DNA from: an uncultured Spirochaetales bacterium
GTDB taxonomy: Bacteria; Spirochaetota; Spirochaetia; JABEVK01
Direction: 5' to 3'
Assembly (NCBI GenBank): GCA_964475005.1
Contig: CAYYUZ010000002.1
Coordinates: 9,272-73,271 of the forward strand
Length of the DNA: 64,000 nt
The position numbers were made by a program, and so were the translations under genes. The notes under the pieces are model-generated. The model made no database searches, had not been told where the DNA came from, and worked only from the letters and a program-made list of their open reading frames with translations. Shown piece by piece: positions 23,829 to 48,411 of the stretch (the stretch's first letter is position 1; every line of letters starts with the position of its first letter).

Positions 23829-23841
23829 GGTACACTCGTTA

Positions 23842-23857
23842 TAGAACACGTGTACTA
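23842..23857. promoter_or_regulatory. imperfect 16-bp palindrome TAGAACACGTGTACTA, candidate TetR operator
   Basis: 14/16 symmetric, centred on ACACGTGT, 14-29 nt upstream of the TetR start. Confidence 0.4.
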
Positions 23858-23883
23858 CACAGTGAGTCCAGCAAATTGTTCTG

Positions 23884-25535: not shown

Positions 25536-26500
25536 AGCTGGTTTCCCTGCACTTCTTTGCGGTTGTCGAGCCAGATGGCGAAAACGAGGATGAGACCCCT
25601 TGCGGCCCACTGCATGTACGAGGACACCCCCAAGAGGTTGAGGCAGTTGTTGAGCATAATTACGAGAAGAACTCCCATGACGGTGCGCAGGACGCTTCCC
25701 TTTCCTCCCTTAAGCGTCGTACCGCCCACGACCACGGCCAGAATGGCGTTTGTCTCGAAACCGAAGCCGATGACAGGGGCCGCCGTGGTGATCCGAGAGA
25801 AGAGCACAATGGCTCCGAGGGCCGCCATGAAACCGCCGATGGTGTAGATCAGGACAATCGAGCGGTCCACCGGGACGCCAGCCAGACGCGCCGCTGTCTT
25901 GTTGCCGCCCGTAAGCGAAATCGCACGGCCTGCAGCGGTCCTTGTATGGAAGATCCACAGGATGGCCAGCGCCACGAGGAAGATGATGAACGACACGGAA
26001 AGCGGACCCACGTCTCCGGCTCCGATGGAATCAAACACGGAGTGGCTGGTTGTGAGGTCCCAGAAGTGCCTTGTTGATCCTCCCGAATAGATGAGGGCGA
26101 AGGAGGAGTAGACGGTGCTCATGCCAAAGGTGATGAACAGCGCCTCGGCCTGTGTCGTCGCACCCCCTGTTAGGATGAGCACGGCGTTCATGGCGCCGCA
26201 GACCGACCCTAGAAACAGGCCGGTCGCCAAAGCTCCAGCCTGTCCGAGGGGATCGATGAGGGAGATGGTGACAACAGCGACCAAGTTGATGGTGCCGGCG
26301 ACCGAAAGATCGATGAACCCGCCTATGATGACAAAGGTCATCCCCAGCGATACAAGGATGAGCGGGCCAAACTGGCGCATGATGTTCACTAGGTTGGCCG
26401 GCGAGATGAATTTCGGCTGGATTACGGCGGTAATGAGGGCCAAGCCCAGAATCATCACAAGGACAAGGTAGTCTTTCAGGATGGAGCCCAACGCCCTCAC
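25532..26500 (-). CDS. sugar ABC transporter permease (CUT2, RbsC-like)
   Basis: Hydrophobic multi-TM protein adjacent to and overlapping the ATPase gene. Confidence 0.85.
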   Translation of the reverse strand: MRALGSILKDYLVLVMILGLALITAVIQPKFISPANLVNIMRQFGPLILVSLGMTFVIIGGFIDLSVAGTINLVAVVTISLIDPLGQAGALATGLFLGSVCGAMNAVLILTGGATTQAEALFITFGMSTVYSSFALIYSGGSTRHFWDLTTSHSVFDSIGAGDVGPLSVSFIIFLVALAILWIFHTRTAAGRAISLTGGNKTAARLAGVPVDRSIVLIYTIGGFMAALGAIVLFSRITTAAPVIGFGFETNAILAVVVGGTTLKGGKGSVLRTVMGVLLVIMLNNCLNLLGVSSYMQWAARGLILVFAIWLDNRKEVQGNQL

Positions 26501-27996
26501 AATGCGCCTCCCGCAAGCCCCAGCGCGGCCCGCATGATAGTATCGACGGGAACGTGCTCGGGCTCAAATTCACCGGTGATCCGGCCGTCGTAGATGGTGA
26601 GCACCCGGTTGCTCATGTTGAGCACCTCGGGAAGCTCTGAAGAAATCAAAATCACCGCCCCGCCCTTCTCGGCGATCTGTTTCATCAGGAGATAAATCTC
26701 GTACTTGGCACCTACGTCGATCCCCTTGGTTGGCTCGTCCATGATGAAGATGCTCGGTCCGATTTCGAGCCAGCGGCCGACGATGCATTTCTGCTGATTG
26801 CCGCCAGACAGATTCTTGATGGCGACCTTGACGTTCGGTGTTTTGATCCTGAGAGATTGCACTTGCTTCGCGCCGATGCCCTTCTCAGAAGATTTCCTCA
26901 GAAACCCGAACCTGGTGAAGCGCTCGATGGACGCCATGGAGATGTTGTGCTCCACCGAGAACGGCAGAACCAGGCCCTGGAGTTTCCGGTCTTCGGGGAT
27001 GAAGCCCAGACCCGCGTCCTTGGCGTTTTTCGGGTTGCGAATGTTCACCGGCTTTCCGTTGATGGAAATCGAATGCCCGTGGACCCGGTCGGCGCCGAAT
27101 AGAGCCCGCACGATTTCAGTGCGGCCAGCTCCGACCAAACCAACCAGGCCCAAGATTTCTCCCTTCTTCAGGTTGAATCGGATGTCATGAAGCTTTCTTG
27201 TGTTGAGGTTCTTCACCTCCATGAGCGTTTCGCCGAGATTCCGCGACCGTTCGGGATATTCGTTCTCGATGGTCCGGCCAACCATCTTGGTGATCAGTTC
27301 GTCTCGGGTGAAGTCTTGTTTCGGTTTGGTGTCGATCACGTTGCCGTCACGCATGACCGTGACGATGTCGCAGAAGTCGAAGATCTCCTCGAGCTTGTGA
27401 CTGATGTAGATGATGGAGATCCCCTGGGCCTTGAGCTGGTGGATGATCTTGACGAGCAGGGCCATTTCCTCGCTGGTCAGGCTGGTGCTAGGCTCATCCA
27501 TGATGATGAGCTTGGACTGGAACGAGAGCGCCTTGGAGATCTCGACCATCTGTTTGGTCGAAACGCTCAGCTCGGAAACGAGCTTGGTCGTGCTGACTTT
27601 GCAGCCAATACTGTCAAGCAGTTCGCGGGCTTTGGCGTGGGTCCCACGCATCCCTTTCATTTCTTTGAAGCGCCCGAGGAAGATGTTCTCGCCGACGCTC
27701 ATCGTGTTCACCAGGTTAAGCTCCTGATAGATGATGGCCAAACCGCTCTGCATGGATTCGTAAGGGGTGGTGTGCTCAATCGTCTTGCCGTCGAAGACAA
27801 TGGTTCCTGTATCTTTCTTGTAGACACCGGAAAGGATCTTCATGAGCGTGGACTTGCCCGCACCGTTCTCTCCCACCACTCCGTGCACCATGCCGCGCCT
27901 GAAATCGATCGAAACACCGTTCAGGGCCCTGACCCCGGGGAAAGTTTTTGTGACCTCTTTGATGGATAAGATAATCTCTGACCCTGCTGTATCCAT
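26497..27996 (-). CDS. sugar ABC transporter ATP-binding protein with duplicated ATPase domains (RbsA/MglA-like)
   Basis: Two Walker A motifs (GENGAGKST, GLVGAGRT), two LSGGNQQK signatures, Walker B IIMDEPT. Confidence 0.9.
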   Translation of the reverse strand: MDTAGSEIILSIKEVTKTFPGVRALNGVSIDFRRGMVHGVVGENGAGKSTLMKILSGVYKKDTGTIVFDGKTIEHTTPYESMQSGLAIIYQELNLVNTMSVGENIFLGRFKEMKGMRGTHAKARELLDSIGCKVSTTKLVSELSVSTKQMVEISKALSFQSKLIIMDEPSTSLTSEEMALLVKIIHQLKAQGISIIYISHKLEEIFDFCDIVTVMRDGNVIDTKPKQDFTRDELITKMVGRTIENEYPERSRNLGETLMEVKNLNTRKLHDIRFNLKKGEILGLVGLVGAGRTEIVRALFGADRVHGHSISINGKPVNIRNPKNAKDAGLGFIPEDRKLQGLVLPFSVEHNISMASIERFTRFGFLRKSSEKGIGAKQVQSLRIKTPNVKVAIKNLSGGNQQKCIVGRWLEIGPSIFIMDEPTKGIDVGAKYEIYLLMKQIAEKGGAVILISSELPEVLNMSNRVLTIYDGRITGEFEPEHVPVDTIMRAALGLAGGAL

Positions 27997-28077
27997 AAGT
28001 CCTAACCTATATTGGATTTGAAAAAAAACGGCCCGTTCCCCATGATGACGGAACGGGCCGCTAAACTCAACTGTCGA

Positions 28078-29022
28078 CTACCACTGGGGCAGAGGGTAGT
28101 TGTTGACGGTGCTCTTGTCGTAGATGAGCTGGGGAATCACGTTGAAGGCCTGGACCTTCTTTCCGGCCAGGACATCCTTGGCAAGGCTCAGTTCTTTCTT
28201 GACCATGGCGGTGAAGTCCTGGGCAATGGAAACGGCCTGATCGCCGCTCTTAACCTGGACATAGCCGGCCTTGTTGCCGTCGACGCCGACGATAAAGATG
28301 TTCTTAAGCCCGGCGGCCTTGGCGGCCTGGATAACGCCCGTCGCACCGTTGTCCCAGTGAACGAACACACCCTGAATCTTGTTGCCGTACTTGACGATGT
28401 CGTCTTCCATGATGGCCTGGGCTTGGTCGGTAGCCCACTGCTGGCAAGCCTTGAAGTCAAGGACCTGAATCTTGGAGCCCTTGATGCCCTTGTCGCCGTT
28501 GAAGCCGTCGTGGCGTTGCAACTGGGCGTTGTGGCCGGCCTGGCCGCCGATCTCTACGACCGTGGCGCCGTTCGGGAAAGCCTTGATGAACTGCTGGGCG
28601 GCGAGTTGTCCGCCGAGGTTGTCGTCGCTAGTGGCGGCGAAGTCGCGGTACTTCTGATCGGCCCCGACAAGTTCAGAGGAGAACATGCCAACGATGAGGC
28701 CGGCTTGTTTGGCCTTGATGATGGCCGGAACGATGGCGTGGATGTCGTTCGGATTGAGGAAGATCGCCTTGAACTTCTGAGCGATGCAGTTCGTGACGAT
28801 CTGCGACTCAGCCTGGGTGTCGCCCTTGGCGTCGAAAGTGGACACTTCGAACCCGTAGTCGGCACCGTATTTCAAAAACTCTTTTGCGGAGAAAGCCTGC
28901 GACTCGTTGGCCTGGTTGGACACGATGAACGCGGCCTTGACTTTGGCTTGGGCGAACGCTCCCGCGCTCATCCCGATGAGCAACGCCAGTCCTATGACCA
29001 GCACCTTGTTGAATCTTGCCAC
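28078..29022 (-). CDS. sugar ABC transporter periplasmic binding protein (RbsB-like)
   Basis: Signal peptide ARFNKVLVIGLALLIGMSAGAFAQA and periplasmic-binding fold sequence. GTG start at 29022 with GGAGG RBS. Confidence 0.85.
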   Translation of the reverse strand: MARFNKVLVIGLALLIGMSAGAFAQAKVKAAFIVSNQANESQAFSAKEFLKYGADYGFEVSTFDAKGDTQAESQIVTNCIAQKFKAIFLNPNDIHAIVPAIIKAKQAGLIVGMFSSELVGADQKYRDFAATSDDNLGGQLAAQQFIKAFPNGATVVEIGGQAGHNAQLQRHDGFNGDKGIKGSKIQVLDFKACQQWATDQAQAIMEDDIVKYGNKIQGVFVHWDNGATGVIQAAKAAGLKNIFIVGVDGNKAGYVQVKSGDQAVSIAQDFTAMVKKELSLAKDVLAGKKVQAFNVIPQLIYDKSTVNNYPLPQW

Positions 29023-29110
29023 AATGAACCTCCATTGTTTTTTTACAGAACGTGAAGACGCCTGTAATTCCCAAAATCTTCGATCCACTTTCGGTATCTG
29101 TCAAGCACGA

Positions 29111-30446: not shown

Positions 30447-31995
30447 GGTGGTCCGCCAGCCGTAGAGCCAGGGCAACAATCGTGAGGGTGGGATTGGCGT
30501 AGCCGCTGGTGGGAAACTGCCCGCAACCCGCCGAGTACAGATTGTCGACGGTGTGGAAACGCGAGTCGGAATTGACGATACCTTCTTCGGAAGTCGCGGC
30601 CATGCGCAGAGCTCCCATGTGGTGGTCGCCGGTGGCCAGGGCGTTTTCGGTCCGCCCGAAGGTCCACTGCTCGGCTCCCCCCTCCAGATTGGTGGTGAGT
30701 CGGAACTCCGTGGCGCCGTGACGGCGCAGATAGGCTTCGCCTAAAGCCATGGCCCTCACCGCGGTCCTCTTGTCTTCTTCGGCCAGTCGCCAGTCGAGCC
30801 GGGTGACTGCTTGGTCAAAAACAGGGTCGACTTCACGCTCATCAAGGGTAATGCGGCTGGCTTCGTTGGGAACCTGCTCCCAGTTGATGTTGAGTTCCGC
30901 GCGGTCGCCCTCCGGGTTGAACCTGACAATGATGCGGAAGTTTCCGATCTTTTCTGCGGCCAGGGTTTCGTGCGTCGGGACCAAGACGCCCCACGCGTTG
31001 AAGACGCAATGCTTGAATAGAAGCCGCGGATCGACAAGCGGAGCCGTGTCGTGAACCCAGTCCTGTTGGGCTTCGGGGTTTCTCAGCCGGATCTGCTGGT
31101 CCCTGTAGAAATTTCTTACCTCGGCGGCGACAGGCTGGGCAAACCTGACCTCGGCGACCGTTGTGATGAGAGGATGGACCATGAAGCCCCTTCCCAAATG
31201 GTCTTTTCGGTTGTTGCCCAGGTCGCCCGAAAGCTTGAGAACCCTCACGGTCTCGATACCGCCCAGGGCCAGCACGAATTTCGAAGCCGTGACAGTAAAC
31301 CTGTGCCCTTCCCTCCCCCCTGCGATGCTGGCACAGACAAGGGAAGTGACGTGAGACTTGTCGGGGGAAGCCTCAATCTTGAGGAGACTCGCGTTGAACA
31401 GGACGGTCACATTGGCCGCCGCCTTAAGCGTGTCGCCCGCACGAAGCTGAAAATCGTGGTAACGTTCCTCGTACTGGGCATGAAAGATGGCGACGCCGAG
31501 TTCGTCACCCGGAAGCGTTGGGAAGTTCTTTCCAAACAGGGCCTTTTCCCAGAACGGCAGGTCGTCGAAATTGAATGGCCCGTAGCGGCCCCAATCCATG
31601 GCTTGTTGATAGTACGGGGTCAAAGTCTGTAGAGCAAAGGGCCAGGAGGCGGCGCGGTAGCCCGGCCGCGGAAGAAAGTCGGCCTCGTCGAGGGGCCTCG
31701 ACCAGAAGCCAAAGTGGTTGGTTGTCCCGCCGAACATATGCAGGCGAGATCTCCTCAGAAAGAGAGGGTCGACCTTTTCGAGGAAGGGGCCTCGGGTGCC
31801 ACCGTAGATCTTTTGGCGAAAACTGGGAGGAAGTCCTTTCTCGTCGGGAAGGCCGGCGGCGAGCACGAGAACTTTCTTGCCGCTCCCCGCCAAACGCCGC
31901 GCCAAGACCAGCCCCGCCGCGCCGGCGCCCACAATGCAGATGTCGTATTCGCGTACAAGAGTTCCGCGGGGAATGTCTTCACTGGAGAGGTACAT
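30433..31995 (-). CDS. GMC family FAD-dependent oxidoreductase
   Basis: N-terminal Rossmann fold DICIVGAGAAGLVLARRL, 520 aa, C-terminal GMC region (HHMGALRMA...). Confidence 0.8.
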   Translation of the reverse strand: MYLSSEDIPRGTLVREYDICIVGAGAAGLVLARRLAGSGKKVLVLAAGLPDEKGLPPSFRQKIYGGTRGPFLEKVDPLFLRRSRLHMFGGTTNHFGFWSRPLDEADFLPRPGYRAASWPFALQTLTPYYQQAMDWGRYGPFNFDDLPFWEKALFGKNFPTLPGDELGVAIFHAQYEERYHDFQLRAGDTLKAAANVTVLFNASLLKIEASPDKSHVTSLVCASIAGGREGHRFTVTASKFVLALGGIETVRVLKLSGDLGNNRKDHLGRGFMVHPLITTVAEVRFAQPVAAEVRNFYRDQQIRLRNPEAQQDWVHDTAPLVDPRLLFKHCVFNAWGVLVPTHETLAAEKIGNFRIIVRFNPEGDRAELNINWEQVPNEASRITLDEREVDPVFDQAVTRLDWRLAEEDKRTAVRAMALGEAYLRRHGATEFRLTTNLEGGAEQWTFGRTENALATGDHHMGALRMAATSEEGIVNSDSRFHTVDNLYSAGCGQFPTSGYANPTLTIVALALRLADHLTEG

Positions 31996-32017
31996 GCCTC
32001 ATGGTATACTAGGAACC

Positions 32018-32848
32018 ATGGCAGAATCCCCCTCTTCACGGGCGGAAATCACCGCGAGTTTTCTGGCCGCTATTCGTCCACAGGCCGTCGAGGTCAGGTT
32101 CTGCGAGCGTTTTGACGGTCAAAGCCGAATCTGGAACTTCGAGAACCACTCCCACGGGGTGTTTGAGTTCCTCTATTTTCTTGATGGAGGAGCCATGATC
32201 CGCGCCGGCGAGGCAGAGCTGGAGGCCGGGCTCTTCGACCTGGTCGTCTACCCACCGGGCGTGGTCCACGAGGAAAAGCTTGTCGAAGGGTTCCGTAATG
32301 AAGTCTTTTGCTTCTGGCTCGATTTGGGTGAGGTTCCCCGGTTCCCTTGGGGGATCAAGGTGCGCGATTCCACCGGAGAGATTCGCGTGCTGATCGAGGC
32401 CATCTATCAGGAGGCGGTTTCGCGCCGGCCCCTCGGCCCCGAGATGATCACAACCTATGTACAGGGACTGCTGGTATTGGCCCGGCGCTGGTTTGCCGAG
32501 CCCAACAGAGAGGACGGAGGCCTGGTTGGCCGATGCCTGAGCTACATTCACGAGCACTACACCGAGGACTTCGCCATTGAAACGATGGCCAAGGCCGTGG
32601 CGGTGAGCCCCTCCTACCTGTTCCGTTCGTTCAAGAAGAAGATGAACCAGACCCCCATGCACTTTCGCAACACCGTCAGGATTGAGAAGTCCAAACTCCT
32701 GTTGTGCCAAAGCAACCGCCGGATCGAACTGGTGGCCCTCGATCTAGGGTTCGCCGACGTGAAGTATTTCTCGTCGCTGTTCCGCCAGATCACCGGGCAG
32801 ACTCCCGGAACGTTTCGAAAGCTCAACCGGCACCCGGCGTTGCAGTAG
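32018..32848 (+). CDS. AraC family transcriptional regulator (cupin plus HTH)
   Basis: Cupin-like N-terminus (HSHGVFEFLYFLDGG) and AraC HTH C-terminus (SPSYLFRSFKKKMNQTPMHFR). ATG 32018; ATG 31994 would overlap the GMC start. Confidence 0.75.
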   Translation: MAESPSSRAEITASFLAAIRPQAVEVRFCERFDGQSRIWNFENHSHGVFEFLYFLDGGAMIRAGEAELEAGLFDLVVYPPGVVHEEKLVEGFRNEVFCFWLDLGEVPRFPWGIKVRDSTGEIRVLIEAIYQEAVSRRPLGPEMITTYVQGLLVLARRWFAEPNREDGGLVGRCLSYIHEHYTEDFAIETMAKAVAVSPSYLFRSFKKKMNQTPMHFRNTVRIEKSKLLLCQSNRRIELVALDLGFADVKYFSSLFRQITGQTPGTFRKLNRHPALQ

Positions 32849-32923: not shown

Positions 32924-35308
32924 ATGAAGAGTCTTCCTGTTTTCTTCATCCCGGAACCTTCCCTCAGAATTGCGTCGCTCAAGGCCAAACTCCAAGCCGA
33001 GCCACGGTACCTGTCGATTGAGCAAGCTCTCCTTGTCACCAAGACCTACAAGGCCCACGAAGGGGCTTCTGTCGCCAAGAAAAGGGCGCTCTCGCTGGCG
33101 CTGTCCCTCAGGGAGATTGGTATCGCCCTCGACATTGACGAACTGATCGTGGGCAATCGGACCGCGGGAATCCGGGCAGGGGTTGTTTTCCCCGAAGCGG
33201 GCATATCTTGGATCGACAAGGAGCTCGAGAGTCTGCCGACCCGCCCTCAGGACAGGTTCCTGGTTAGGCCCGACGACGCCCAGAAATTTCGCAAGGTCAT
33301 TTTGCCGTACTGGAAAGGAAAGACTCTTGAAGACACCATCAGGGAGGAGGCGGGCGACGTCGTCGATGCCATCGGCCGGGTGGTGAAGATCAATCAGAAG
33401 GACCACGCCCAAGGCCACATTTGCCCCGATACCGCGTTGTGGATCAAGGTGGGCGCTGCGGGTCTTCAACAGGACGCGCACAAGCGCTTGGATCAAGAGG
33501 CAGACCCAAGGAAGAAAGAGTTTTACGAGAGTGTTGTCATCGTCTTGTCGGCGGCAAGGGATTTCATGGTTCGCTATGCGGTGCAAGCCGAGGCCATGCT
33601 TCACACCGCCGGGGCCGACCAGCGCAGCAACCTGGCCGAGATCGCCCGGATCTGCCGAAAACTGGCCGGTCCAGCGGGAACCTGCGGGGCCGAGACCTTC
33701 CGCGAGGCCCTTCAGGCCCTGTGGTTTCTGTTTGTCATCCTCCATTTAGAAAGCAACGCTTCGTCGTTCTCGCCGGGTCGAGCCGACCAGTACTTGCTTC
33801 CCTACTTTCGCGCCGACCGCACGGCGGGCCGCTTGAGTGAGGCCGATGCGCTGGAACTGGTCGAGGCTCTCTGGTTGAAATTCAACCAGATCGTCTACCT
33901 GCGAAACGCTCACAGCGCCGCGTTTTTTGCCGGGTTTCCGATCGGATTTAACGTGGCCATCGGTGGCCGAAACCCCGATGCCTCTGATGCGGCGAACGAG
34001 CTTTCGTATCTGTTTCTTCAAGCGCAAGGAGCCCTGGGGCTTCCCCAACCCAACCTTTCGGCGAGACTCCACGAACGCTCGCCCCAGGAATTCCTCGACG
34101 CGTGCTCCACGGTGATCGGACGGGGCAGCGGCATGCCCCAAGTCTTCAATGATGAGAGCATCGTACCCGCGCTGACGGTGCAGGGTATTTCAAAAGCCGA
34201 TGCCGAAAACTACGCCATCGTCGGGTGCGTGGAACTGACCACTCACGGCAACAATCTTGGGTGGAGCGACGCGGCCATGTTCAACCTGCCCAAGGCCCTT
34301 GAGCTGGCCCTCAACGATGGAGTCGACCTGATTTCCGGACAAAGGCTGTCGCCGGGAACCGGCACTTTGGCCGACTATGCCACCTTCCTCGACGTCGAAA
34401 ACGCCTTTCGCGTTCAGATCGACTATTTCTTTGAAAAGATGATCGAGGCGTGCGAAAAAGTGGAATCGGCGCACCAAAGGCTCATGCCCACCGCCTTCCT
34501 TTCATCGGTCATCGGGGACTGTCTGGAAAGTGGGCTCGACGTGGTCGCCGGTGGGGCGCACTACAACCTTTCCGGTATCCAGGTGATCCAGCCGGCCAAC
34601 ATCGCCGATTCTCTGGCGGCGCTCAAGTCATTGGTCTACGACCGGCACGAAATTGACAGAGGCTTCGTATTGGATGCCCTCAGAAACAACTTTCACGACA
34701 ACGAGAGCCTTCAAAAGGTCCTCCTCGAGGAAGCCCCCAAGTACGGAAACGATGTGGAGTGGGTCGACGGGCTCGCGAACGTCTGGATCACCTACTTTGC
34801 TAAAAAGTTCGAAGGCCGTTCAAACTTTCGGGGCGGCCGCTACCACACGGGAATGTACACGGTGAGCGCCCACGTACCGATGGGGGCCAACGTCGGCGCC
34901 TCGCCCGACGGCAGGCTGGCCAAGACTCCTCTGGCTGACGGAGGGATGTCGGCCGTCTACGGCCGGGACCGCAAGGGACCGACCGCCGTTCTCAAATCGG
35001 TGTCTCGGATCAATTCCGCTCTCGGGAGCAACGGCACCCTGCTCAACCTGAAGTTCCTCCCGCAGTTCTTCTCGACACAAGAGGGAATCCGCAAGTTCTC
35101 AAGCCTGCTCAAGGCCTTCGTCAGACTTCGCATCAACCACGCGCAGTTCAACGTGGTTCGCAAGGAGGACCTCCTTGACGCGCAAAAACACCCAGAAAAC
35201 TATAGGTCGCTAACGATCCGGGTGGCCGGCTACACGGCCTACTTCACCGAGTTGGCCACGGATCTCCAGAATGAAATCATCGCCCGAACTTCGTATGACG
35301 ATCTTTGA
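32924..35308 (+). CDS. glycyl radical enzyme, PFL2/dehydratase-eliminase clade (794 aa)
   Basis: C-terminal glycine-radical motif RVAGYTAYFTEL. Single active-site Cys followed by Glu (AIVGCVELTTHG), as in glycerol dehydratase, CutC, HypD and IslA-type eliminases. Confidence 0.9.
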   Translation: MKSLPVFFIPEPSLRIASLKAKLQAEPRYLSIEQALLVTKTYKAHEGASVAKKRALSLALSLREIGIALDIDELIVGNRTAGIRAGVVFPEAGISWIDKELESLPTRPQDRFLVRPDDAQKFRKVILPYWKGKTLEDTIREEAGDVVDAIGRVVKINQKDHAQGHICPDTALWIKVGAAGLQQDAHKRLDQEADPRKKEFYESVVIVLSAARDFMVRYAVQAEAMLHTAGADQRSNLAEIARICRKLAGPAGTCGAETFREALQALWFLFVILHLESNASSFSPGRADQYLLPYFRADRTAGRLSEADALELVEALWLKFNQIVYLRNAHSAAFFAGFPIGFNVAIGGRNPDASDAANELSYLFLQAQGALGLPQPNLSARLHERSPQEFLDACSTVIGRGSGMPQVFNDESIVPALTVQGISKADAENYAIVGCVELTTHGNNLGWSDAAMFNLPKALELALNDGVDLISGQRLSPGTGTLADYATFLDVENAFRVQIDYFFEKMIEACEKVESAHQRLMPTAFLSSVIGDCLESGLDVVAGGAHYNLSGIQVIQPANIADSLAALKSLVYDRHEIDRGFVLDALRNNFHDNESLQKVLLEEAPKYGNDVEWVDGLANVWITYFAKKFEGRSNFRGGRYHTGMYTVSAHVPMGANVGASPDGRLAKTPLADGGMSAVYGRDRKGPTAVLKSVSRINSALGSNGTLLNLKFLPQFFSTQEGIRKFSSLLKAFVRLRINHAQFNVVRKEDLLDAQKHPENYRSLTIRVAGYTAYFTELATDLQNEIIARTSYDDL

Positions 35309-36071
35309 CGTTCAGCGCTTCTCGGTCCACGACGGACCGGGAATTCGCACGACGGCGTTTTTGAAGGGATGTCTGCTGAGGTGTGTGTGGTGCCAGAATC
35401 CTGAGGGGCTCAAGTTCGGCACAGGCGATCCGATGCACTCAAGCAAAGTCCGCGAAGTCACCCCAGCGGCCTTGGCCGAAGAACTGCTTGCCGACCGCGT
35501 GTTCTTCGAGACCTCGGGAGGAGGCGTCACGTTCTCAGGAGGCGAGCCGCTGGCGCAGGCCGAAGGTTTGGTTGAAACGGCCAGAATTCTACGCTCGCAA
35601 GGAATTCACGTCGCGGTTGAAACGTCGCTGGAGGTTCCTCTGGAGCGGCTCCAACGGGTTTTGGACGAGGTGGATTTGGTCCTGGCCGACCTCAAGGTTG
35701 CCGATCCAGAAGATCACAAGAAGTGGACCGGACGCGGAAATGAGAGGATTCTGGGGAACTTCCAGGCGCTGGCGAAGTATTCAGCAAAGCACGGACATCC
35801 TCAAATCGTCGTCCGCACGCCTCTGGTTCCGGGGCATACGGCCACCAAGGCCAACCTGACCAAACTCCGCGAGTTTCTGGCCTCTTGGGGACCTGTTTCT
35901 TGGGAACTTCTGGATTTCAACCCATTGGCCAAAGCCAAGTACCGGGCCCTCGGCCGCTCCGACTACCCTTTCGACCACCTCAGCACAGGCTTGACGCACG
36001 AAGAACGCTGCCAATTGAACGAGGCGGCCGGACTGATCGAATCACCGCCTAAGGAGACCTCCACCTCATGA
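35295..36071 (+). CDS. glycyl radical enzyme activating enzyme (radical SAM), compact form
   Basis: CLLRCVWCQNPE (CX3CX2C) near the N-terminus and FDVQRFSVHDGPGIRT. Only about 40 residues to the GGGVTFSGGEP motif, so no ferredoxin-like insertion. Overlaps the GRE stop by 14 nt. Confidence 0.9.
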   Translation: MTIFDVQRFSVHDGPGIRTTAFLKGCLLRCVWCQNPEGLKFGTGDPMHSSKVREVTPAALAEELLADRVFFETSGGGVTFSGGEPLAQAEGLVETARILRSQGIHVAVETSLEVPLERLQRVLDEVDLVLADLKVADPEDHKKWTGRGNERILGNFQALAKYSAKHGHPQIVVRTPLVPGHTATKANLTKLREFLASWGPVSWELLDFNPLAKAKYRALGRSDYPFDHLSTGLTHEERCQLNEAAGLIESPPKETSTS

Positions 36072-37912
36072 TTTCGAGTATCGAGTCGTTCTTGACACGA
36101 GCCAAAGCGGGTAGCCCGGTCTTCATCACCGAAGTCCGGCGAACCTTCGAAGCACTTCCGCGGGATCAGAGGTTTCGTCTGGGCGTCAACTTGACCCTGC
36201 CGGACCGCACGGTGCGCTGTTTTAGGATCACGCTACCAACGTTTGCCGTCGACAGCCAGCCGGATCCGCAGCGGCTCTTTGCCGAAGAGTACTTTCTTTC
36301 CGAAATGTACAACCGGATCTCGGCTCTGGGGGCCAGAGACCTCGAGTTTCGGACCGAGGAGGGACTGCCCGAAGCGGTTTGGCTGCACCAACGCTTTGAA
36401 GCCGCCTTCGGTCTGGCACAGAGGCGAAAGGCCCGACGGGGCTACGGCCGCGCCGTCAACGTTGTCGAGCGGATGATCGATTCTTTGGAACACACAACCA
36501 ATTCACGAATGTCGTGCCGGTTCACCCTCGGTCGTTTGGAGGAGGTTACTCAGGTGTCCCGTGCGCACAGTGGTGGAGTTCTCGCTCTGGCCGACCGAGC
36601 GCTGCGAGGGGTGGCACGACGCACCCTTTTAGGCATCGATGTGGGCGGAAGCGACATCAAACTGGCGTTGTCGATCGACGGCAGGCTGGCCGGCCTCAAG
36701 GAATACGACTGGTTCCCCGCTCAATTCACTCGCATCGCCTCGTTGACCGACCCCATCGAAGCTCTGGTAAGGCTCATGGCCTGGAAGGCTGTCGCATTGG
36801 GTGCCGCTGATGGAAGACCCGACCCAGCCCTCGATGCGGTTCTAGACCCGGCCTTTGCACTCAAAGCGGACAACGCCACCCTGAATCGAGTCTTGGAACT
36901 GGCCGCACCGCTTGTAGAAAGCCGCGACACAGCGTTCAAGCTCGACGGCATTGGACTCTCGTTTCCCGATGTCGTGGTCAAAGACAAGATTGTCGGCGGC
37001 GAGGTCTACAAGACCCGCGGCATCCGCGACAACCCTTCACTCGACTACGAGGCCGAGTTCCGCTCCCTGACCGAACTTGACACGCGTTTGCGGCGGTTGG
37101 TGAAGGACGGGGCCCCAGTGGTCACGGTGAACGACGGACCGATGGCCGCCTTCACGGCGCTGGTCGAAGGAAGTCTTGCCGATCCGAGCGGCGTCGAGGA
37201 CGGCATTTTTGCCCATACTCTCGGAACCGAACTCGGTACCGGCTGGGTGACCGAAAACGGCAAGATTCCTGACATCCCCCTCGAGGTCTACAACTTCATC
37301 ATCGACCTGGGCTCGTACCCCGAAAGGGAGTTCGACTGCGATGATCCCCGGAGTGTGAAGAACTTCAACACCGACCTTCCGGGCACCCTGCAGAAGTACA
37401 CAAGCCAGAGCGGCGCGTTCCGCCTGGCTCTCAAGCATTTCCCTGTCGAGCGTCCGGACTTGCTGAGAGAAATCTTCAAGAAAGGCTTCGTTGTGCCTGG
37501 TCCCGGTGACACTCTGCGAATTCCCTCGGAACCTCAAGATCAGCGCAAGCCGTTCCTCGAATACCTGATGGCCCTTCCTGATCGTGACGGGCAGGCTTCA
37601 GTGAACCGGATCTTTCGTGAGATCGGTGAGTTCCTCGCGGTAGCCACAGAGGAATGCAACCAGATTTTGCAACCCGCGGCTTCGCCTCGCATCCTTTTTG
37701 GACGCATGGTCAAGAACCCCTCGTGTTTTCGCTTGATGCGGGAGGGGGCGCAGTCGTTCGATCCGAAGATCACCCTCGGTCAGGCGGCCGACGACATGGC
37801 GATGTCAAAACTGATGCGCGAATTGAAGGAGGACCCCCGTCACACTGTGGCTCAATTCGCCCAGGCCGTTGGCGCGGTTCACTACGTTGCCAGCCGTTTT
37901 CAAGGCGCGTGA
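36068..37912 (+). CDS. uncharacterised ASKHA-superfamily (sugar-kinase/HgdC/ROK-like fold) protein with about 200-aa N-terminal extension
   Basis: Phosphate-1-like GIDVGGSDIKLAL near residue 215 and glycine-rich FAHTLGTELGTGWV later. ATGA overlap with the activase stop. Confidence 0.6.
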   Translation: MISSIESFLTRAKAGSPVFITEVRRTFEALPRDQRFRLGVNLTLPDRTVRCFRITLPTFAVDSQPDPQRLFAEEYFLSEMYNRISALGARDLEFRTEEGLPEAVWLHQRFEAAFGLAQRRKARRGYGRAVNVVERMIDSLEHTTNSRMSCRFTLGRLEEVTQVSRAHSGGVLALADRALRGVARRTLLGIDVGGSDIKLALSIDGRLAGLKEYDWFPAQFTRIASLTDPIEALVRLMAWKAVALGAADGRPDPALDAVLDPAFALKADNATLNRVLELAAPLVESRDTAFKLDGIGLSFPDVVVKDKIVGGEVYKTRGIRDNPSLDYEAEFRSLTELDTRLRRLVKDGAPVVTVNDGPMAAFTALVEGSLADPSGVEDGIFAHTLGTELGTGWVTENGKIPDIPLEVYNFIIDLGSYPEREFDCDDPRSVKNFNTDLPGTLQKYTSQSGAFRLALKHFPVERPDLLREIFKKGFVVPGPGDTLRIPSEPQDQRKPFLEYLMALPDRDGQASVNRIFREIGEFLAVATEECNQILQPAASPRILFGRMVKNPSCFRLMREGAQSFDPKITLGQAADDMAMSKLMRELKEDPRHTVAQFAQAVGAVHYVASRFQGA

Positions 37913-37965: not shown

Positions 37966-38706
37966 ATGACCAAGCGCCTTGACCAAATTCTGAAGATCCT
38001 CTCAGAACAGCACAAAGTCTCGGTGATTGAACTTTCGGAAGACCTGAAGGTTTCTCCGGCCACCATTCGACAAGATTTGACAGTGCTTGAGCAGGAAGGC
38101 CTACTTGTCCGCAACCATGGCGGGGCCGAGCTCAGGGAATCGGACGATCTGGCCCATCGCATGGCGATCAACTACGAAGACAAACTGAAGATCGCCCACA
38201 AGGCGGTAGAACTTGTCGATGAAGGCGATACAATCTTTGTCGAGTCCGGGTCAACCAACGCAATCTTCGTGAAGGAGCTGACGGCCGCCAAGCGGGTGAC
38301 CATCATCACGTCCAACGCCTTCATCGCCCGCAAGGTCGACCAATCCAGGGGTGGAAGCGTGATCTTGATCGGCGGCGTCTTTCAGAGGGAAAGCGAAAGC
38401 ATCGTCGGCAATATGGCCAAGGACAACATCGACCAGGTCAACTTTAACCGGGCCTTTTTGGGAGTCGACGGGTTCACCCCCGAAACCGGGTTCACCGGCC
38501 GCGACATGATGCGCGCCGAGATCGTCAACTACATCGTTTCCAAGGCCCGCGAAGTCATCATCCTCACCGATTCTTCGAAGTTCGGGCAAATCCACCTGTC
38601 TCGCTGTTGCCGGCTCGAAGACGTCGACCGCATCATCACCGACGGCCGCCTCTCGGAAAAGTACCGGGAGTTGGTGTCGGCAAAAGTTGACTTGATGCTG
38701 GTGTAG
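37966..38706 (+). CDS. DeoR family transcriptional regulator
   Basis: N-terminal DeoR HTH (RLDQILKILSEQHKVSVIELSEDLKVSPATIRQDLTVLE) and C-terminal sugar-phosphate-binding domain. Confidence 0.85.
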   Translation: MTKRLDQILKILSEQHKVSVIELSEDLKVSPATIRQDLTVLEQEGLLVRNHGGAELRESDDLAHRMAINYEDKLKIAHKAVELVDEGDTIFVESGSTNAIFVKELTAAKRVTIITSNAFIARKVDQSRGGSVILIGGVFQRESESIVGNMAKDNIDQVNFNRAFLGVDGFTPETGFTGRDMMRAEIVNYIVSKAREVIILTDSSKFGQIHLSRCCRLEDVDRIITDGRLSEKYRELVSAKVDLMLV

Positions 38707-41892: not shown

Positions 41893-41901
41893 GGGAGTTC
41901 C

Positions 41902-42696: not shown

Positions 42697-42839
42697 CCCA
42701 GAGCCTCCAATGCGCCAAAGGCTAATCCGAAGCAGGGACGCTGTCAAGCAAAATGTTCGTTTATTCAGATATACGAAAGCTATTTCATTTCACTTGAAGT
42801 CATGATATTCTTCATTTGTCGACATTTGGAGGGCAATCG

Positions 42840-43799
42840 ATGAGTTCACTTCTTTGTGGAGTAGACCTGGGAGGCACCAAACTCAGCGTGGGATTGGTGA
42901 AAGAAACCGGTGAAGTTCTAGACCAGGTGACGGTCTACGATCACAGCAAGAAGGCGCCAGACCTTATCTTGGAGGAGATCGCTAACCTTGTGCGGCAGCT
43001 GCTTGCCAACCATGGACTGGGCGAAAAGGACCTGCGCGGCATCGGTGTGGCCACCGCGGGTCACCTCAGGTATCGCGACGGAGTTCTGATTACAATGTCG
43101 AACCTGGAAGGCTTCCGCCAGTATCCCATCCGCGACAAAATGGCAGCCCATTTTTCGGTGCCCATCGAAGTCGACAACGACGCCAACGCGCAGGCCTACG
43201 CCGAGTACAAGTTTGGGGCCGGCCGGGGCTACCAGGACATGATCTTCATGACCCTCAGCACCCAGATCGGCGCCGGTATCGTTTTGGGGGGCCAGCTGTT
43301 TCGGGGAATGACGGGGACCGCGGGAGAAATCGGCCACACCATTGTCGACCCCCACAGCGACCTCGTCTGCCCCTGCGGCAACCGGGGCTGCCTGATCGCC
43401 GTGGCTTCGGGCGTTTCGCTTCCCGCGATTGTTACCAAAAAGCTGAGCTCGGGGTTGGTTTCCAAAAGGATTTCGCTGGAGACTCTCGCCTCGACGGTGA
43501 TCGACGGCAACTTTATCCGCGAAGGATTGGCCCAAGGCGATCCGCTATGCCAAAGCGTGGTCGCCGATTACGCCGGGTCCATAGGAATCGGCATCTACAA
43601 CCTGTTCCAGATCTTCAACCCTGAAGCCGTAGTTCTTGGCGGCGGCTTGACCCAGTGGGGTGCGCCGCTTTTTGAGGGAATTCGCAACCGGGTCCGAGAA
43701 CTGGCCCGCGACATGATGTTCGATCCGATGGCCATCCTTGAGGGGACAGTCGCCAACTCAGGGCTGGTCGGGGCGGCGTCTCTGGTGTCCAAAAAATGA
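42840..43799 (+). CDS. ROK family sugar kinase (glucokinase / N-acetylglucosamine kinase-like)
   Basis: LLCGVDLGGTKLSVGLV and ROK zinc motif CPCGNRGCLIAVASG. GGAGGG RBS before ATG 42840. Confidence 0.85.
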   Translation: MSSLLCGVDLGGTKLSVGLVKETGEVLDQVTVYDHSKKAPDLILEEIANLVRQLLANHGLGEKDLRGIGVATAGHLRYRDGVLITMSNLEGFRQYPIRDKMAAHFSVPIEVDNDANAQAYAEYKFGAGRGYQDMIFMTLSTQIGAGIVLGGQLFRGMTGTAGEIGHTIVDPHSDLVCPCGNRGCLIAVASGVSLPAIVTKKLSSGLVSKRISLETLASTVIDGNFIREGLAQGDPLCQSVVADYAGSIGIGIYNLFQIFNPEAVVLGGGLTQWGAPLFEGIRNRVRELARDMMFDPMAILEGTVANSGLVGAASLVSKK

Positions 43800-45277: not shown

Positions 45278-46020
45278 ACCTTCAAAACGATGATTCCTGA
45301 CTCCTGCAAGAATCGAAAGTCGGGCTCGGGGATGCCAGTGTCGGTGATGACCGTGTGGATGCTTGTGTTCTCGCCGCAAATGGGCGCCAAATGTGCAGCC
45401 CCAAACTTGCTCGAATCGGTCAGAATGTAGCTCGCGGCTCCCTTGGAAAGGATGGCCTGAGTGATCTCGGCGCGAAGCGAATCGTTGAGGGTGAAGCCCG
45501 TTGTCTGGGTGAAACCTGTGACTCCGAGAAAACACTTGGAAAACGTGAGTTCTGCTAGGGCGTTTTTCGTCACCGAGCCGACAAAGCTTTCGCTACTCTC
45601 TTGGTAGAAACCGCCCAAGACAATGACGCGGGTACCGCTGGCACGAAACAGCCGCGCGATAAAGAGGTTCGACGTGATGACCGTGAGGTTGCGCAGATCC
45701 TTGATCCTCTCGGCAAGGATGGACACCGTTGAACCGGCCTCAAGGAGGATGGTATCACCGGGTTCGATGAACGTTGCCGCCGCTCGGGCGATGCGAGACT
45801 TGTCTTCGAACCGGGAGCCCATGCGGAAGGGAATCTCGTCACCCTCAAACGCCCGCGCCTCGCCGTGAAACCTGCGGACCAACATCTTCTTTTCAAGCGC
45901 CGAGAGAGTCTTGCGGATCGTGACCCCCGAGACGCCAAGCTCGGCGGCGAGATCCAGAACCTTCTTCGGTCCGCCCCGCAACACAAGGTCGGCCACTTGG
46001 GATTCCAGGTCGCGTTTCAT
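45274..46020 (-). CDS. DeoR family transcriptional regulator (second copy)
   Basis: DeoR HTH LVLRGGPKKVLDLAAELGVSGVTIRKTLSALEKKMLV. ATG 46020 overlaps the GRE2 stop (ATGA). Confidence 0.85.
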   Translation of the reverse strand: MKRDLESQVADLVLRGGPKKVLDLAAELGVSGVTIRKTLSALEKKMLVRRFHGEARAFEGDEIPFRMGSRFEDKSRIARAAATFIEPGDTILLEAGSTVSILAERIKDLRNLTVITSNLFIARLFRASGTRVIVLGGFYQESSESFVGSVTKNALAELTFSKCFLGVTGFTQTTGFTLNDSLRAEITQAILSKGAASYILTDSSKFGAAHLAPICGENTSIHTVITDTGIPEPDFRFLQESGIIVLKV

Positions 46021-48407
46021 CAGAGTCTGTGTTCCGTCCGCGCAATGATGTCGTCTTGAGTGTCCGAAGCCAGGTCTCGGAAAAAGGCCGAGTACCCGGC
46101 CACACGAACAACAAGATCGCGGTACTTCTCGGGGTCCTTCTTGGCCGCGATCAGGGTCTCGCGCGAAACGATGTTGTACTGCACGTGCCACCCCCCCAAG
46201 TCGTCGAAGAAGGTCCGGATCAGCGCTTCAAGTTTCAATTTGTCGTTGGGCGTTTCAAGAGACTTGGGCGAGAGTTTTTGGTTGAGCAGGACACCGCCGA
46301 AGATCCGCCCAGCGGGAAGTTTGCCGATCGACTTGAAGACCGCGGTGGGTCCCAGAAGATCGGTGCCCGACGACGGGGAGCAGCCTTCGGCCAGAGGAGT
46401 TCCTGCATGACGGCCGTCGGCGGTGGCCCCGACTTCTGAACCCGACGGAACGTTGGAGGAAATGCTCGACGTTCCGGGGTAGTAGCCGCCGCCGATGGGT
46501 CCCCTCCCCCAACGCGTGTTGTGAAGTTTCTCGATCTGGTCGGCAAAGTACCCGTAGGCCTCCACTACTAAGGCGTCGACTTCGTCGTTGTCATTGCCGA
46601 ACTTGGGGGCCCCGTTGAGAAGCCGTTGCCTGAGGATCTCCCCCTGGGGACCCGCAAAATCGTTGGCCAGTGCGTCGAGCAGTTCCTGACGGCCGATGAC
46701 GCCTTCTTCGAAGACAAGTTTCTTCACCGCGGCCAGGGCGTTGCCCAAATTGGCGACGCCAACCTGCAGGCCTGAAACCCAGTCGTAAACCGCGCCCCCC
46801 TCCTTGAGGTGCTTTCCGCGGGCGATACAGTCGTCGGTGAAGACAGAGCACAGAACATCGGGAACAAGCTCTTCGAGCGCCGTGTCGACCGCGACATCGA
46901 TGGCAACCGTGGCCCGGGCGTAGAACTGCACCTGTTTCTTCCAGGCTTCCATCAACGCCCCGAAGTCGGCAAAGTCAGCCAGTTTCCCCGTTCCCGCCAG
47001 GAAGGTCATTCCCGTCTCGGGATCACGGCCATCCTGGAGCGCGAGATTGAAAACCCTCATGAAGTTCAGAAAGCTCATGCCGGTGGTGCGGTAGCCCCAC
47101 TTGCCGGGAACCGCCACCTCGATACAACCGATGGCCGAGTAGTCGCGGGCGTCTTCCAAACTGACCCCCAAGCGGAGCATGCCGGGAATGACCACCTCGT
47201 CGTTGTTGAAGGCCGGCATGCCGAAGCCCTTCTCAATCACGCGTATTGAGGCGGCCAGGAACTCCGCGCTCGTGCCCGAATGGTACCGGATCGAGAGGTT
47301 GGGCTGAGTCAGCTTCATCTCACCGACAGACTCCAAGATGAGGAAACTGAGGGCATTGGTGGCGTCGTGGCCGTCAAGCCCGACTCCGCCGATCGTCACG
47401 TTTTGGTACAGAGGCCCGCCGGCCGACGTTCGTGTGTGCGACGCCGATCGAACCTTCTTGATCGAAGTCAGTTTGATCCACGTCCAGCAGAGTCCCTGTT
47501 TGGCGGTTTCGCGGTCGAGAGTTCCGGCCTTCAAGTCGCGGTCGTAGTACGGCCCCAAGTACTGGTCCAGACGCCCGAACGACAAAGAATGCCCGTTGGA
47601 CTCGATCTGCAGAACAATCTGCAAAAAGACGCAAAGCTGGAGCGCTTCAAAGAACGTTTGCGGAGGCTTGGTGGAGATGACCTCGCAGGTCTGAGCGATC
47701 TTCTTCAGCTCCTCAGCCCTTTGGGGATTGTTCTCGGCTACAGCCTGCTGACGCGCTAGCTCGGCGTACCTCTCGATATACCTCGAGAGCCCGCTGAGCG
47801 CATCGAGCATCGCAAGGTACAACTGACGCTTTTTGAGGTCGAAGAACGACGCGGGGTCAAGTTCGGCCAACGCCTTTTCAACCTTGCGCCTAGTCCCTCC
47901 TACCCCAAACTCCAAAGCCTTGCGGAGGTTGATCGCCACGTGCCCGTCTCCCGAGGTCATGTTCCCCTCGGCCTTGATGATCTTGGTGGCGTGAAGTTCC
48001 TCAAGCTCAGGAGACAACAAGGCGTGGGCACGCTCCTGCAGAGTTTTGCCCCGCCAGAACTGACAAATCTCCTTGAGTTCGGCCTTCTCTTGAGGCGTCC
48101 CGAGGTAGGCCTCCGCTGGACGTTTGTCGATGGTGTCGATTTCGCTGGCAAGCCAACCCACAGAGTATTCGGGAAAGATCGGCGCCGCCTTGGGTCGGGA
48201 GGAGTGGTTGCCGACGATGGTCTCGTCAGGCTCAATGAAGATGACCATCTCTTCAAGGGTTTTTCGCAGAGCGAGTCCCCTCCTCCGGACAATCGGCAAG
48301 GCCTCGTTCTCACGGTAGACACGGGTGTAGATGCGCGCCCGCTCCAGGCAGAGGCTTGCCTTTGTCGACAACATGCGGTCTTTGGCAAGCATCAGCTTCT
48401 CGCTCAT
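46020..48407 (-). CDS. glycyl radical enzyme, PFL2/eliminase clade (795 aa, second copy)
   Basis: Glycine-radical motif RVAGYSAFFRDL. Active-site Cys-Ile-Glu (SAIGCIEVAVPG). Confidence 0.9.
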   Translation of the reverse strand: MSEKLMLAKDRMLSTKASLCLERARIYTRVYRENEALPIVRRRGLALRKTLEEMVIFIEPDETIVGNHSSRPKAAPIFPEYSVGWLASEIDTIDKRPAEAYLGTPQEKAELKEICQFWRGKTLQERAHALLSPELEELHATKIIKAEGNMTSGDGHVAINLRKALEFGVGGTRRKVEKALAELDPASFFDLKKRQLYLAMLDALSGLSRYIERYAELARQQAVAENNPQRAEELKKIAQTCEVISTKPPQTFFEALQLCVFLQIVLQIESNGHSLSFGRLDQYLGPYYDRDLKAGTLDRETAKQGLCWTWIKLTSIKKVRSASHTRTSAGGPLYQNVTIGGVGLDGHDATNALSFLILESVGEMKLTQPNLSIRYHSGTSAEFLAASIRVIEKGFGMPAFNNDEVVIPGMLRLGVSLEDARDYSAIGCIEVAVPGKWGYRTTGMSFLNFMRVFNLALQDGRDPETGMTFLAGTGKLADFADFGALMEAWKKQVQFYARATVAIDVAVDTALEELVPDVLCSVFTDDCIARGKHLKEGGAVYDWVSGLQVGVANLGNALAAVKKLVFEEGVIGRQELLDALANDFAGPQGEILRQRLLNGAPKFGNDNDEVDALVVEAYGYFADQIEKLHNTRWGRGPIGGGYYPGTSSISSNVPSGSEVGATADGRHAGTPLAEGCSPSSGTDLLGPTAVFKSIGKLPAGRIFGGVLLNQKLSPKSLETPNDKLKLEALIRTFFDDLGGWHVQYNIVSRETLIAAKKDPEKYRDLVVRVAGYSAFFRDLASDTQDDIIARTEHRL

Positions 48408-48411
48408 CGTC

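Follow-up and report, generated by a model that had tools for sequence, protein, structure and literature searches.

We analysed a 64,000-nucleotide stretch of DNA from an uncultured Spirochaetales bacterium (contig CAYYUZ010000002.1; hereafter the window), and in particular the gene at 36068..37912 on its forward strand, which encodes a 614-residue protein that we call X614. Judging from its sequence and from the company its gene keeps, the protein is most likely a ROK-derived sugar kinase of undescribed architecture, bearing an orphan domain and dedicated to a glycyl radical enzyme (GRE) pathway. We put at roughly 55% the probability that it is an ATP-dependent anhydro-hexitol kinase, probably acting on 1,5-anhydromannitol, that provides an entry into 'anhydroglycolysis' independent of the phosphotransferase system (PTS). 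Four observations carry this reading: the fold of the protein, the conservation of its catalytic residues, the synteny of its gene with those of a GRE and a GRE activase, and a distribution complementary with respect to PTS genes, fructose-6-phosphate aldolase (FSA) and a ribose-type ATP-binding cassette (ABC) importer. A sequence-only reading of the same DNA had offered three roles for the protein, namely a kinase for the GRE substrate or product, an HgdC/BcrAD-type electron-transfer activator and a GRE maintenance factor. Fold, complementary distribution and the residues conserved in the GRE make a kinase for the GRE substrate the best supported of these.

A ROK-like kinase domain without a sequence-profile match

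The X614 open reading frame (ORF) starts with an ATG (36068-36070) that overlaps the TGA stop of the upstream activase gene (36069-36071) as ATGA; both the frame and the overlap, as first read from the letters, were borne out. The ORF is a real gene, given that ENA holds an identical protein and that the family is conserved. It encodes a new N-terminal domain (residues 1-184; 36068..36619) followed by a zinc-less, ROK-like ASKHA domain of the sugar-kinase fold (residues 185-614; 36620..37909), the latter recognised with Foldseek and hhalign.

Sequence searches gave little indication of this fold. Pfam returned zero matches even at E=10, NCBIfam returned only a weak match to ROK_glcA (E 0.26; 10.5 bits against a cut-off of 260), the best phmmer match among PDB sequences had an E value of ~1, and hhalign against a single ROK sequence aligned the phosphate-1 motif alone (15% probability). 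The AlphaFold2 (AF2) model of the whole protein, a check that the sequence-only reading had asked for, was confident (pLDDT 92, pTM 0.92) and ROK-kinase-like. Its best Foldseek matches in the PDB were ROK gluco-, ManNAc- and GlcNAc-kinases (E 7e-12 to 1e-9, TMt 0.66-0.73), headed by 2qm1 (E 6.9e-12, TMt 0.73). Our Foldseek conclusions rest on the best 50 of 303 significant PDB matches, which were mostly ROK kinases and ROK repressors, then Glk-type glucokinases and one hexokinase. A profile-level comparison agreed: hhalign of X614 against 13 canonical ROK kinases from related loci gave 85.6% probability (E 5.6e-6) and paired residues 286-563 with ROK positions 66-294. The ASKHA fold, proposed beforehand from motifs, was thus confirmed by the model together with its top PDB matches. 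The long C-terminal region, which had been taken for a separate, unrecognised entity, is lobe II of the kinase-fold domain, since Foldseek aligned ~430 columns to ROK kinases and the hhalign pairing extends across it; the domain is enlarged by large insertions at about 224-290 and 417-540.

The residues expected of a working kinase are in place. The phosphate-1 motif GIDVGGSDIKLAL (residues 189-201; 36632..36670), which contains GIDVGGS, aligns with GIDIGGT of the ROK glucomannokinase 1woq and with the window's own ROK kinase. Its residues D191, G193, G194 and K198 are invariant, and position 195 is S or T across the family (D191-V-G-G-S/T). The motif had been recognised beforehand and placed at residue 215; it starts at residue 189 (nucleotide 36632). 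N355-D356 (37130..37135) corresponds to the ROK 'N-D' pair, the sugar-binding Asn and catalytic-base Asp; hhalign paired VTVNDGPMAAF with IEVDNDANAQAY, and the pair is invariant in every member, distant ones included. The glycine-rich LGTELGTGWV, rightly reported from the letters, is the phosphate-2 motif (residues 385-394; 37220..37249). It aligns with STGIGAG of ROK kinases and LGTGIGSA of 1woq, and G386, T387, E388, G390 and G392 are invariant. E406-V-Y408-N409 (37283..37294) occupies the hhalign columns of the sugar-binding ExGH motif, with E406 as its Glu and N409 (in distant members Q) where ROK kinases have the zinc-ligand His. The ROK zinc motif CxCGxxGC is likewise replaced, by NFNTxLPGT, and G545 was equated with a Gly of the ROK adenosine GGG. 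Even P0194 and P0203, which diverge most from the rest of the family, retain these catalytic residues. Conserved cysteines were absent family-wide, the zinc-motif region included; C553, the sole Cys invariant among close homologues, gives way to A or V in these two proteins.

X614 therefore shares with ROK kinases (PF00480, PROSITE PS01125; glucokinases 2qm1 and 3vgk, NanK 2yhy and 6q27, NagK 7p7w) the two-lobed ASKHA fold, DxGG[ST], the N-D pair, the GT-x-G-x-G loop, the Glu of ExGH and the adenosine Gly. It differs from them in lacking a PF00480 match at E=10 (the genuine ROK kinase of the window scores 210 bits), in having lost CxCGxxGC and the ExGH His, in carrying ~130 residues of conserved insertions and a 184-residue N-terminal domain without a solved relative, and in being twice the usual size. 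By its sequence, X614 stands outside the ROK definition, yet it keeps the ROK catalytic apparatus. It shows that a ROK kinase can drift far, losing its zinc site, gaining a domain and escaping profile detection, with its core kept.

The N-terminal domain is alpha/beta and was modelled separately with good confidence (AF2 pLDDT 89.7, pTM 0.82). It had been described as an extension of about 200 residues matching nothing; the lack of matches stands, and the length is 184 residues. Foldseek found no PDB match for it at E<=1e-3, and deaminase- and MPN-like matches were rejected as weak (TM <=0.31). Two helices and a beta-hairpin form the start of the domain, which has many conserved Arg residues and carries the motif R120-x2-R123-x-G-Y-G-R128-x2-N131-V-x-E-R135 together with Y81, N82 and S85. 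R123, N131 and R135 are retained in even the most distant members, and this Arg-rich motif may bind phosphate or a partner protein.

Relatives of X614 comprise more than 1,220 representatives of 90%-identity clusters, nearly all 600-635 residues long and nearly all labelled 'hypothetical protein'. When 1.84 billion representative proteins were searched exhaustively with a profile, only 409 family members came back, which indicates a closed family. A relative is encoded in 380 of 185,579 species genomes, almost all of them metagenome-assembled, from Spirochaetota, Chloroflexota, Planctomycetota, Clostridia/Christensenellales, Anaeromyxobacter and Propionivibrio. Across 50 aligned members the mean column identity was 55%, with more than 130 columns invariant, a conservation across phyla that is unusually high for a sugar kinase. 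Full-text literature searches found no earlier description of the family.

Linkage of X614 to a PflD-type GRE and its activase

X614 follows GRE1 (32924..35308, forward strand), a PflD-type GRE of 794 residues with PF02901 and PF01228 domains and a GCVE Cys loop, and AE1 (35271..36071, forward strand), a GRE-activating radical-SAM enzyme (PF04055, PF13353; TIGR02494, 222 bits). The conservation of this arrangement was surveyed in 80 genome loci containing X614; ORF calls were mechanical and visible flanks were 6-10 kb, so that absence here means absence nearby. A GRE1-type enzyme (57-80% identity), an activase and X614 stood in line in 58 of the 80 loci, and six more had GRE1 within 10 kb in a different arrangement. 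Thirteen loci were too short to judge, and three had no close GRE1 (>=50% identity), although one of these, L037, encodes a 43%-identical GRE. In 64 of the 67 loci that could be judged, a PflD-type GRE thus lay within 10 kb of X614, usually with the GRE first, the activase second and X614 third, and the arrangement holds also in distant X614 members. The linkage claimed by the sequence-only reading is borne out across phyla, and the co-occurrence check that it proposed revealed GRE-linked homologues, as opposed to widespread kinases free of any such linkage.

The description of X614 as an 'obligate operon partner' went too far, because a sister GRE clade (57-61% identical to GRE1, described below) lacks X614 and three Planctomycetota loci have no GRE nearby. 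Tight coupling to the activase is common, not universal: among 35 loci with both ORFs cleanly called, 12 overlapped (10 of them by 4 nt) and 17 were separated by 0-30 nt; the median over the 35 loci was 4 nt. A promoter and terminator scan of 31.5-39.2 kb of the window gave nothing above chance. In-frame activase-X614 fusions occur in P0006 and P0007, from the window's own clade (67% identity), and in the distant P0194, and arose at least twice. The P0007 locus is gene-for-gene syntenic with the window.

The activases themselves vary. AE1 is short (266 residues), matches TIGR02494 in two pieces and is without the ferredoxin-like two-cluster insert that is present in the window's second activase, AE2 (297 residues), and in most X614-linked activases (median 307 residues); the P0194 fusion retains it. 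At the P0194 locus (L081, 7577-16137) two GREs stand in tandem, the first (791 residues) followed by the fusion and the second (802 residues) by a plain activase and an L-fucose isomerase, with a PfkB kinase and a ribose-type ABC importer upstream.

Other loci depart further from the usual order. X614 adjoins a GRE with no activase adjacent in L065 and L074 and lies kilobases from the GRE in L041 and L057. In the three Planctomycetota loci (L055, 8888-11842; L069, 4538-7625; L063, 16-2976) it directly follows a Glk-type glucokinase (PF02685), with no GRE in the available flanks. These Glk-linked proteins have intact catalytic residues and a relaxed N-domain motif (R128 to K/C, Y126 to F, N131 to S).

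Recurrent neighbours of X614 were a ribose-type ABC importer, AraC regulators (conserved in 22 loci), DeoR regulators (23 loci), GMC and Gfo/Idh/MocA oxidoreductases and a canonical ROK kinase. In 27 loci, the window not among them, an AroE-like dehydrogenase immediately followed X614 (for example L075, 5053-5916; L026, 3802-4752). This gene tracks X614, not the GRE; it passes the TIGR00507 aroE domain cut-off (210 versus 200 bits) and falls below those of the other matching shikimate-dehydrogenase models. Its product could reduce the cyclic ketone 1,5-anhydrofructose. In two loci of Propionivibrio/Betaproteobacteria (L037 and L026), X614 stands after a distant GRE (43% identity; a 1129-residue ORF in L037), an activase and a GMC oxidoreductase, and is followed by a GlcG-like protein of 160 residues, with an AroE-like gene and a Gig2-like/PhyH protein in L026 only.

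An X614-free sister clade and the complementary distribution of sugar uptake

The passages on anhydroglycolysis in two publications (PMC12441222, PMC13450708, citing Ma et al. 2024) describe anhydro-sugars entering E. coli via the PTS, PflD opening 1,5-anhydromannitol-6-phosphate and YbiW opening 1,5-anhydroglucitol-6-phosphate. Both GREs yield 1-deoxyfructose-6-phosphate, which FSA aldolases cleave. GRE1 has its best PDB matches in PflD (8id0, 611 bits; 8yjo, 605 bits). It is 40.5% identical to E. coli PflD and scores 707 bits, short of the 1109 bits that the NCBIfam PflD equivalog model demands, and it is therefore placed in a PflD-like subfamily rather than among strict orthologues. With its C-x-E loop and dedicated activase it has the GRE component of the pathway, and it is predicted to be an anhydro-hexitol-6-phosphate C-O lyase.

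A reverse survey, seeded with GRE1, covered 80 metagenome loci (L084-L163), many of them from human gut. X614 was present in 14 and missing from 35 loci with at least 3 kb downstream. The X614-free loci, those of the sister clade, have the order DeoR-GRE-activase-FSA aldolase (PF00923), which is also the E. coli arrangement (fsaB/frwCB-pflD-pflC-frwD). In a neighbour-joining tree the X614-linked GREs grouped apart from the FSA-linked ones, and E. coli PflD fell outside either group.

As a stand-in for the phosphate-binding residues of PflD we took the basic residues shared between the enzymes and compared their conservation. The FSA clade and E. coli PflD have 27 conserved R/K/H residues in common, each of which is also the consensus residue of the X614 clade; for 23 of these the frequency within that clade is 95% or higher, and the lowest is 43% (K691). 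The window's GRE1 keeps every basic residue conserved in PflD, and the two clades can be told apart at just five positions, none of which is basic. This argues that GRE1 binds a phosphorylated substrate.

The downstream and uptake genes, by contrast, differ between X614-bearing and X614-free loci. Among loci of the reverse survey with at least 2 kb downstream, FSA accompanied X614 in 2 and was missing in 11, whereas without X614 it was present in 26 and missing in 11 (p=9e-4); it was found in 1 of the 80 X614 genome loci. A ribose-type ABC permease was encoded in 45-48 of 80 and 6-7 of 14 X614-bearing loci, compared to 1-2 of 66 X614-free loci (Fisher p=3e-5). Frw-type PTS genes showed the opposite pattern (0 of 94 with X614, 4 of 66 without). 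X614 loci thus have neither the PTS uptake nor, as a rule, the FSA aldolase of the known pathway.

Proposed role of X614 and alternative explanations

By analogy with E. coli, X614 would most likely do the job of the PTS transporter. Its activity, its substrate, the position phosphorylated and any role of its N-terminal domain are inferred, and the pathway that we propose runs as follows. The ribose-type ABC importer would bring in unphosphorylated 1,5-anhydro-D-mannitol or, in a variant, 1,5-anhydro-D-fructose, which would first be reduced, in many genomes by the AroE-like dehydrogenase. X614 would then use the gamma-phosphate of ATP to phosphorylate the sugar, presumably at O6, with D356 as the base and with D191 and the two Gly-rich loops holding Mg-ATP. 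The oxygen-sensitive GRE1, activated by AE1, would open the ring of the sugar phosphate to give 1-deoxy-fructose-6-phosphate, and the DeoR regulator would sense the phosphorylated intermediate. The DeoR family senses sugar phosphates. A phosphorylated GRE1 substrate is to be expected from the kinship with PflD, the FSA of the sister clade, the 27 basic residues and the adjacent DeoR gene. The most economical explanation is that X614 is the cytoplasmic kinase required when the sugar enters via an ABC importer and not the PTS. The Glk-X614 pairs of Planctomycetota are a sugar-phosphorylation context without a GRE, and we count them for a kinase.

If so, X614 provides the entry step that a PTS-independent anhydroglycolysis has been lacking, and a pathway known so far from Enterobacteria and Firmicutes of the gut would reach into environmental members of the Spirochaetota, Chloroflexota, Planctomycetota, Myxococcota and Clostridia. 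A family of at least 1,220 cluster representatives, unannotated and invisible to profile libraries, would also gain a name and an activity that can be tested. The likely function is ordinary biochemistry.

Several points weigh against this assignment. The substrate is bracketed only phylogenetically, and the co-occurrence statistics, whose locus counts are not phylogenetically independent, carry no correction for shared ancestry. Within its 64 kb the window encodes no FSA/TAL homologue that could cleave the predicted product. The occurrence of X614 is anticorrelated with that of FSA, and both take the slot after the activase; X614 could therefore handle the GRE product. The 184-residue domain with its Arg motif and the more than 130 invariant columns go beyond the needs of a simple sugar kinase, and the repeated activase fusions and recurrent 4-nt overlaps hint at a closer tie to the activase.

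A kinase acting elsewhere in the pathway, on the GRE product (e.g. 1-deoxyfructose), on 1,5-anhydrofructose or as a general hexose kinase (mannose, fructose), would draw on the same fold and catalytic evidence and is an unlikely alternative. The operon slot that X614 takes over from FSA speaks for it, as do the Glk-X614 pairs, which would fit a broader hexose-kinase role, and the AroE-like dehydrogenase after X614 in 27 loci, which makes a keto-sugar intermediate likely. What tells against it is that the basic residues of GRE1 match those of PflD and the FSA clade, arguing for a substrate already phosphorylated when it reaches GRE1, and that the pathway would lack an aldolase even if X614 acted on the product. 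Slightly less likely again is that X614 is an ATP-dependent partner of AE1 or GRE1 that promotes, times or maintains installation of the glycyl radical, perhaps gated by sugar. DdrA/PduG/GdrA (~610 residues) and EutA, the ASKHA-fold reactivases of B12 radical enzymes, are ATPases of similar size encoded with their radical enzyme, and offer a loose analogy. In such a model, to which we give the same low credence in its physical form, the N-terminal domain would dock on the activase or the GRE, and X614 would couple sugar binding or phosphorylation to radical installation or would channel substrate. The activase-X614 fusions in two far-apart lineages, the position straight after the activase with its recurrent 4-nt overlaps, the unexplained and highly conserved N-terminal domain and the unusual conservation of the whole family all favour a partner. 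In vitro, PflD and YbiW carry no more than 0.02-0.06 radicals per monomer (PMC13450708), which makes a missing helper conceivable. If X614 were that helper, it would be the first ASKHA-type accessory component of a GRE system and might explain these very low yields.

An essential partner role is argued against by the X614-free sister clade, whose equally similar GREs and activases do without X614, as do E. coli PflD-PflC and the window's second GRE system. X614 also tracks the type of transporter, not the GRE; it can adjoin a GRE with no activase nearby (L065, L074), lie far from both (L041, L057) or, in the Planctomycetota pairs, stand with Glk and no GRE. Its N-D/E sugar-binding set is typical of kinases and not of chaperone-like ASKHA ATPases. 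Unlike the B12 reactivases, X614 has no family match in Pfam and no reactivase among the best 50 of 303 Foldseek matches, it keeps kinase-type sugar-binding and catalytic residues, and its GRE has no exchangeable cofactor. The GRE maintenance factor of the sequence-only reading is thus weakened by the sister clade, and kept alive by the fusions. We consider a non-catalytic sugar sensor or regulator like Mlc and NagC, its N-terminal domain binding DNA or a partner, very unlikely. The parallel in architecture with ROK repressors, which are among the fold matches (1z6r, 5f7q), and the N-terminal domain, with its initial helices and hairpin and its many conserved Arg residues, suggest it, whereas the ATP-binding and catalytic residues are strictly invariant, the PDB search found no winged-helix or other DNA-binding fold in that domain, and the locus already has AraC and DeoR regulators. 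There is next to no chance that X614 is an ATP-driven electron-transfer activator of the HgdC/BcrAD type feeding the activase. Nothing beyond the general ASKHA fold and the link to a radical enzyme suggests it. The bridging-cluster cysteines that the sequence-only reading had proposed looking for were sought and not found: the family has no conserved Cys pair to bridge a [4Fe-4S] cluster, C553 itself being variable, which excludes the role. PF01869 gave no match at E=10, membership of HgdC/BcrAD/BadFG is likewise excluded, and the structural neighbours are ROK kinases.

Comparison with known pathways and GRE accessory proteins

The same sources, in their passages on the E. coli pathway (PMC12441222, PMC13450708), list as its parts the frwCBD/ptsA PTS, PflD, PflC, FsaB and GldA. 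The X614 locus resembles this set in its PflD-type C-x-E GRE and activase, and the window in having a YbiW orthologue; a need for a phosphorylated anhydro-hexitol, which the conserved residues of GRE1 suggest, would be a further likeness. The differences are that X614 loci have an ABC importer and X614 in place of the PTS, that the window is free of FSA, that GRE1 shares only 40.5% identity with E. coli PflD and that the hosts are Spirochaetota, Chloroflexota, Planctomycetota, Clostridia, Anaeromyxobacter and Propionivibrio, known nearly all from metagenome-assembled genomes.

Known GRE accessory subunits, such as HPAD gamma, BSS beta/gamma and MASS beta/gamma/delta, are small Fe-S or rubredoxin-like proteins (PMC13450708). 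X614 is like them an additional conserved gene of a GRE operon, and unlike them it is large, has an ATP-binding fold and lacks conserved cysteines. The 2026 review of GREs names neither a kinase nor any ASKHA protein among their components (PMC13450708). Nor does X614 belong to the anhydro-N-acetylmuramic acid/levoglucosan kinases (AnmK, PF03702), for which neither Pfam nor NCBIfam gave a match and which were absent from the best 50 of 303 fold matches.

Other genes of the window

X614 is followed directly by a DeoR-family regulator (37966..38706, forward strand; PF00455, PF08220), and an AraC-family regulator (31877..32848, forward strand) precedes GRE1. The ribose-type ABC importer (24540..29088, reverse strand; identified with Pfam) consists of a binding protein (28078-29088), an ATPase (26497-27996) and two permeases (25532-26500 and 24540-25610). 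Just downstream of it, at 20857-24867 on the same strand, are genes for a GH3 glycoside hydrolase (761 residues), a TetR regulator and a HAD-family hydrolase, which could be further parts of a sugar-utilisation island.

The second GRE system (46020..49308, reverse strand), which is complete and to which no X614 is attached, comprises a YbiW orthologue (46020-48407) and the full-length activase AE2 (48412-49308). The former scores 961 bits to E. coli YbiW (8id7), a 1,5-anhydroglucitol-6-phosphate C-O lyase. Here the activase is encoded upstream of the GRE, and a DeoR regulator (45274-46191, reverse strand) lies downstream. Upstream of AE2, a 364-residue ORF (49411-50508, reverse strand) with hydrophobic N- and C-terminal segments is membrane-protein-like; checked as a possible second accessory protein, it had no Pfam, NCBIfam or PDB match.

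The canonical ROK kinase (42816..43799, forward strand; PF00480) raised the question of redundancy. A canonical ROK kinase is present in about 18% of X614 loci, and no other kinase is universal there. Across these loci it co-occurs with YbiW-type GRE2 (9/4/5/62, Fisher p=4.7e-6); since it tracks the YbiW-type GRE, it does not make X614 redundant and that possibility was rejected. One kinase per GRE fits this pattern. The ROK kinase is one of four genes between the two GRE systems (40768-45277), with a Gfo/Idh/MocA enzyme that is levoglucosan-dehydrogenase-like (254 bits, below cut-off), an Rpe-like epimerase and a GMC oxidoreductase that is weakly pyranose-oxidase-like; the ROK and GMC reading frames share 4 nt. 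The four look like an anhydro-sugar interconversion module, and together with the two GRE systems they mark the region as an anhydro-sugar utilisation island.

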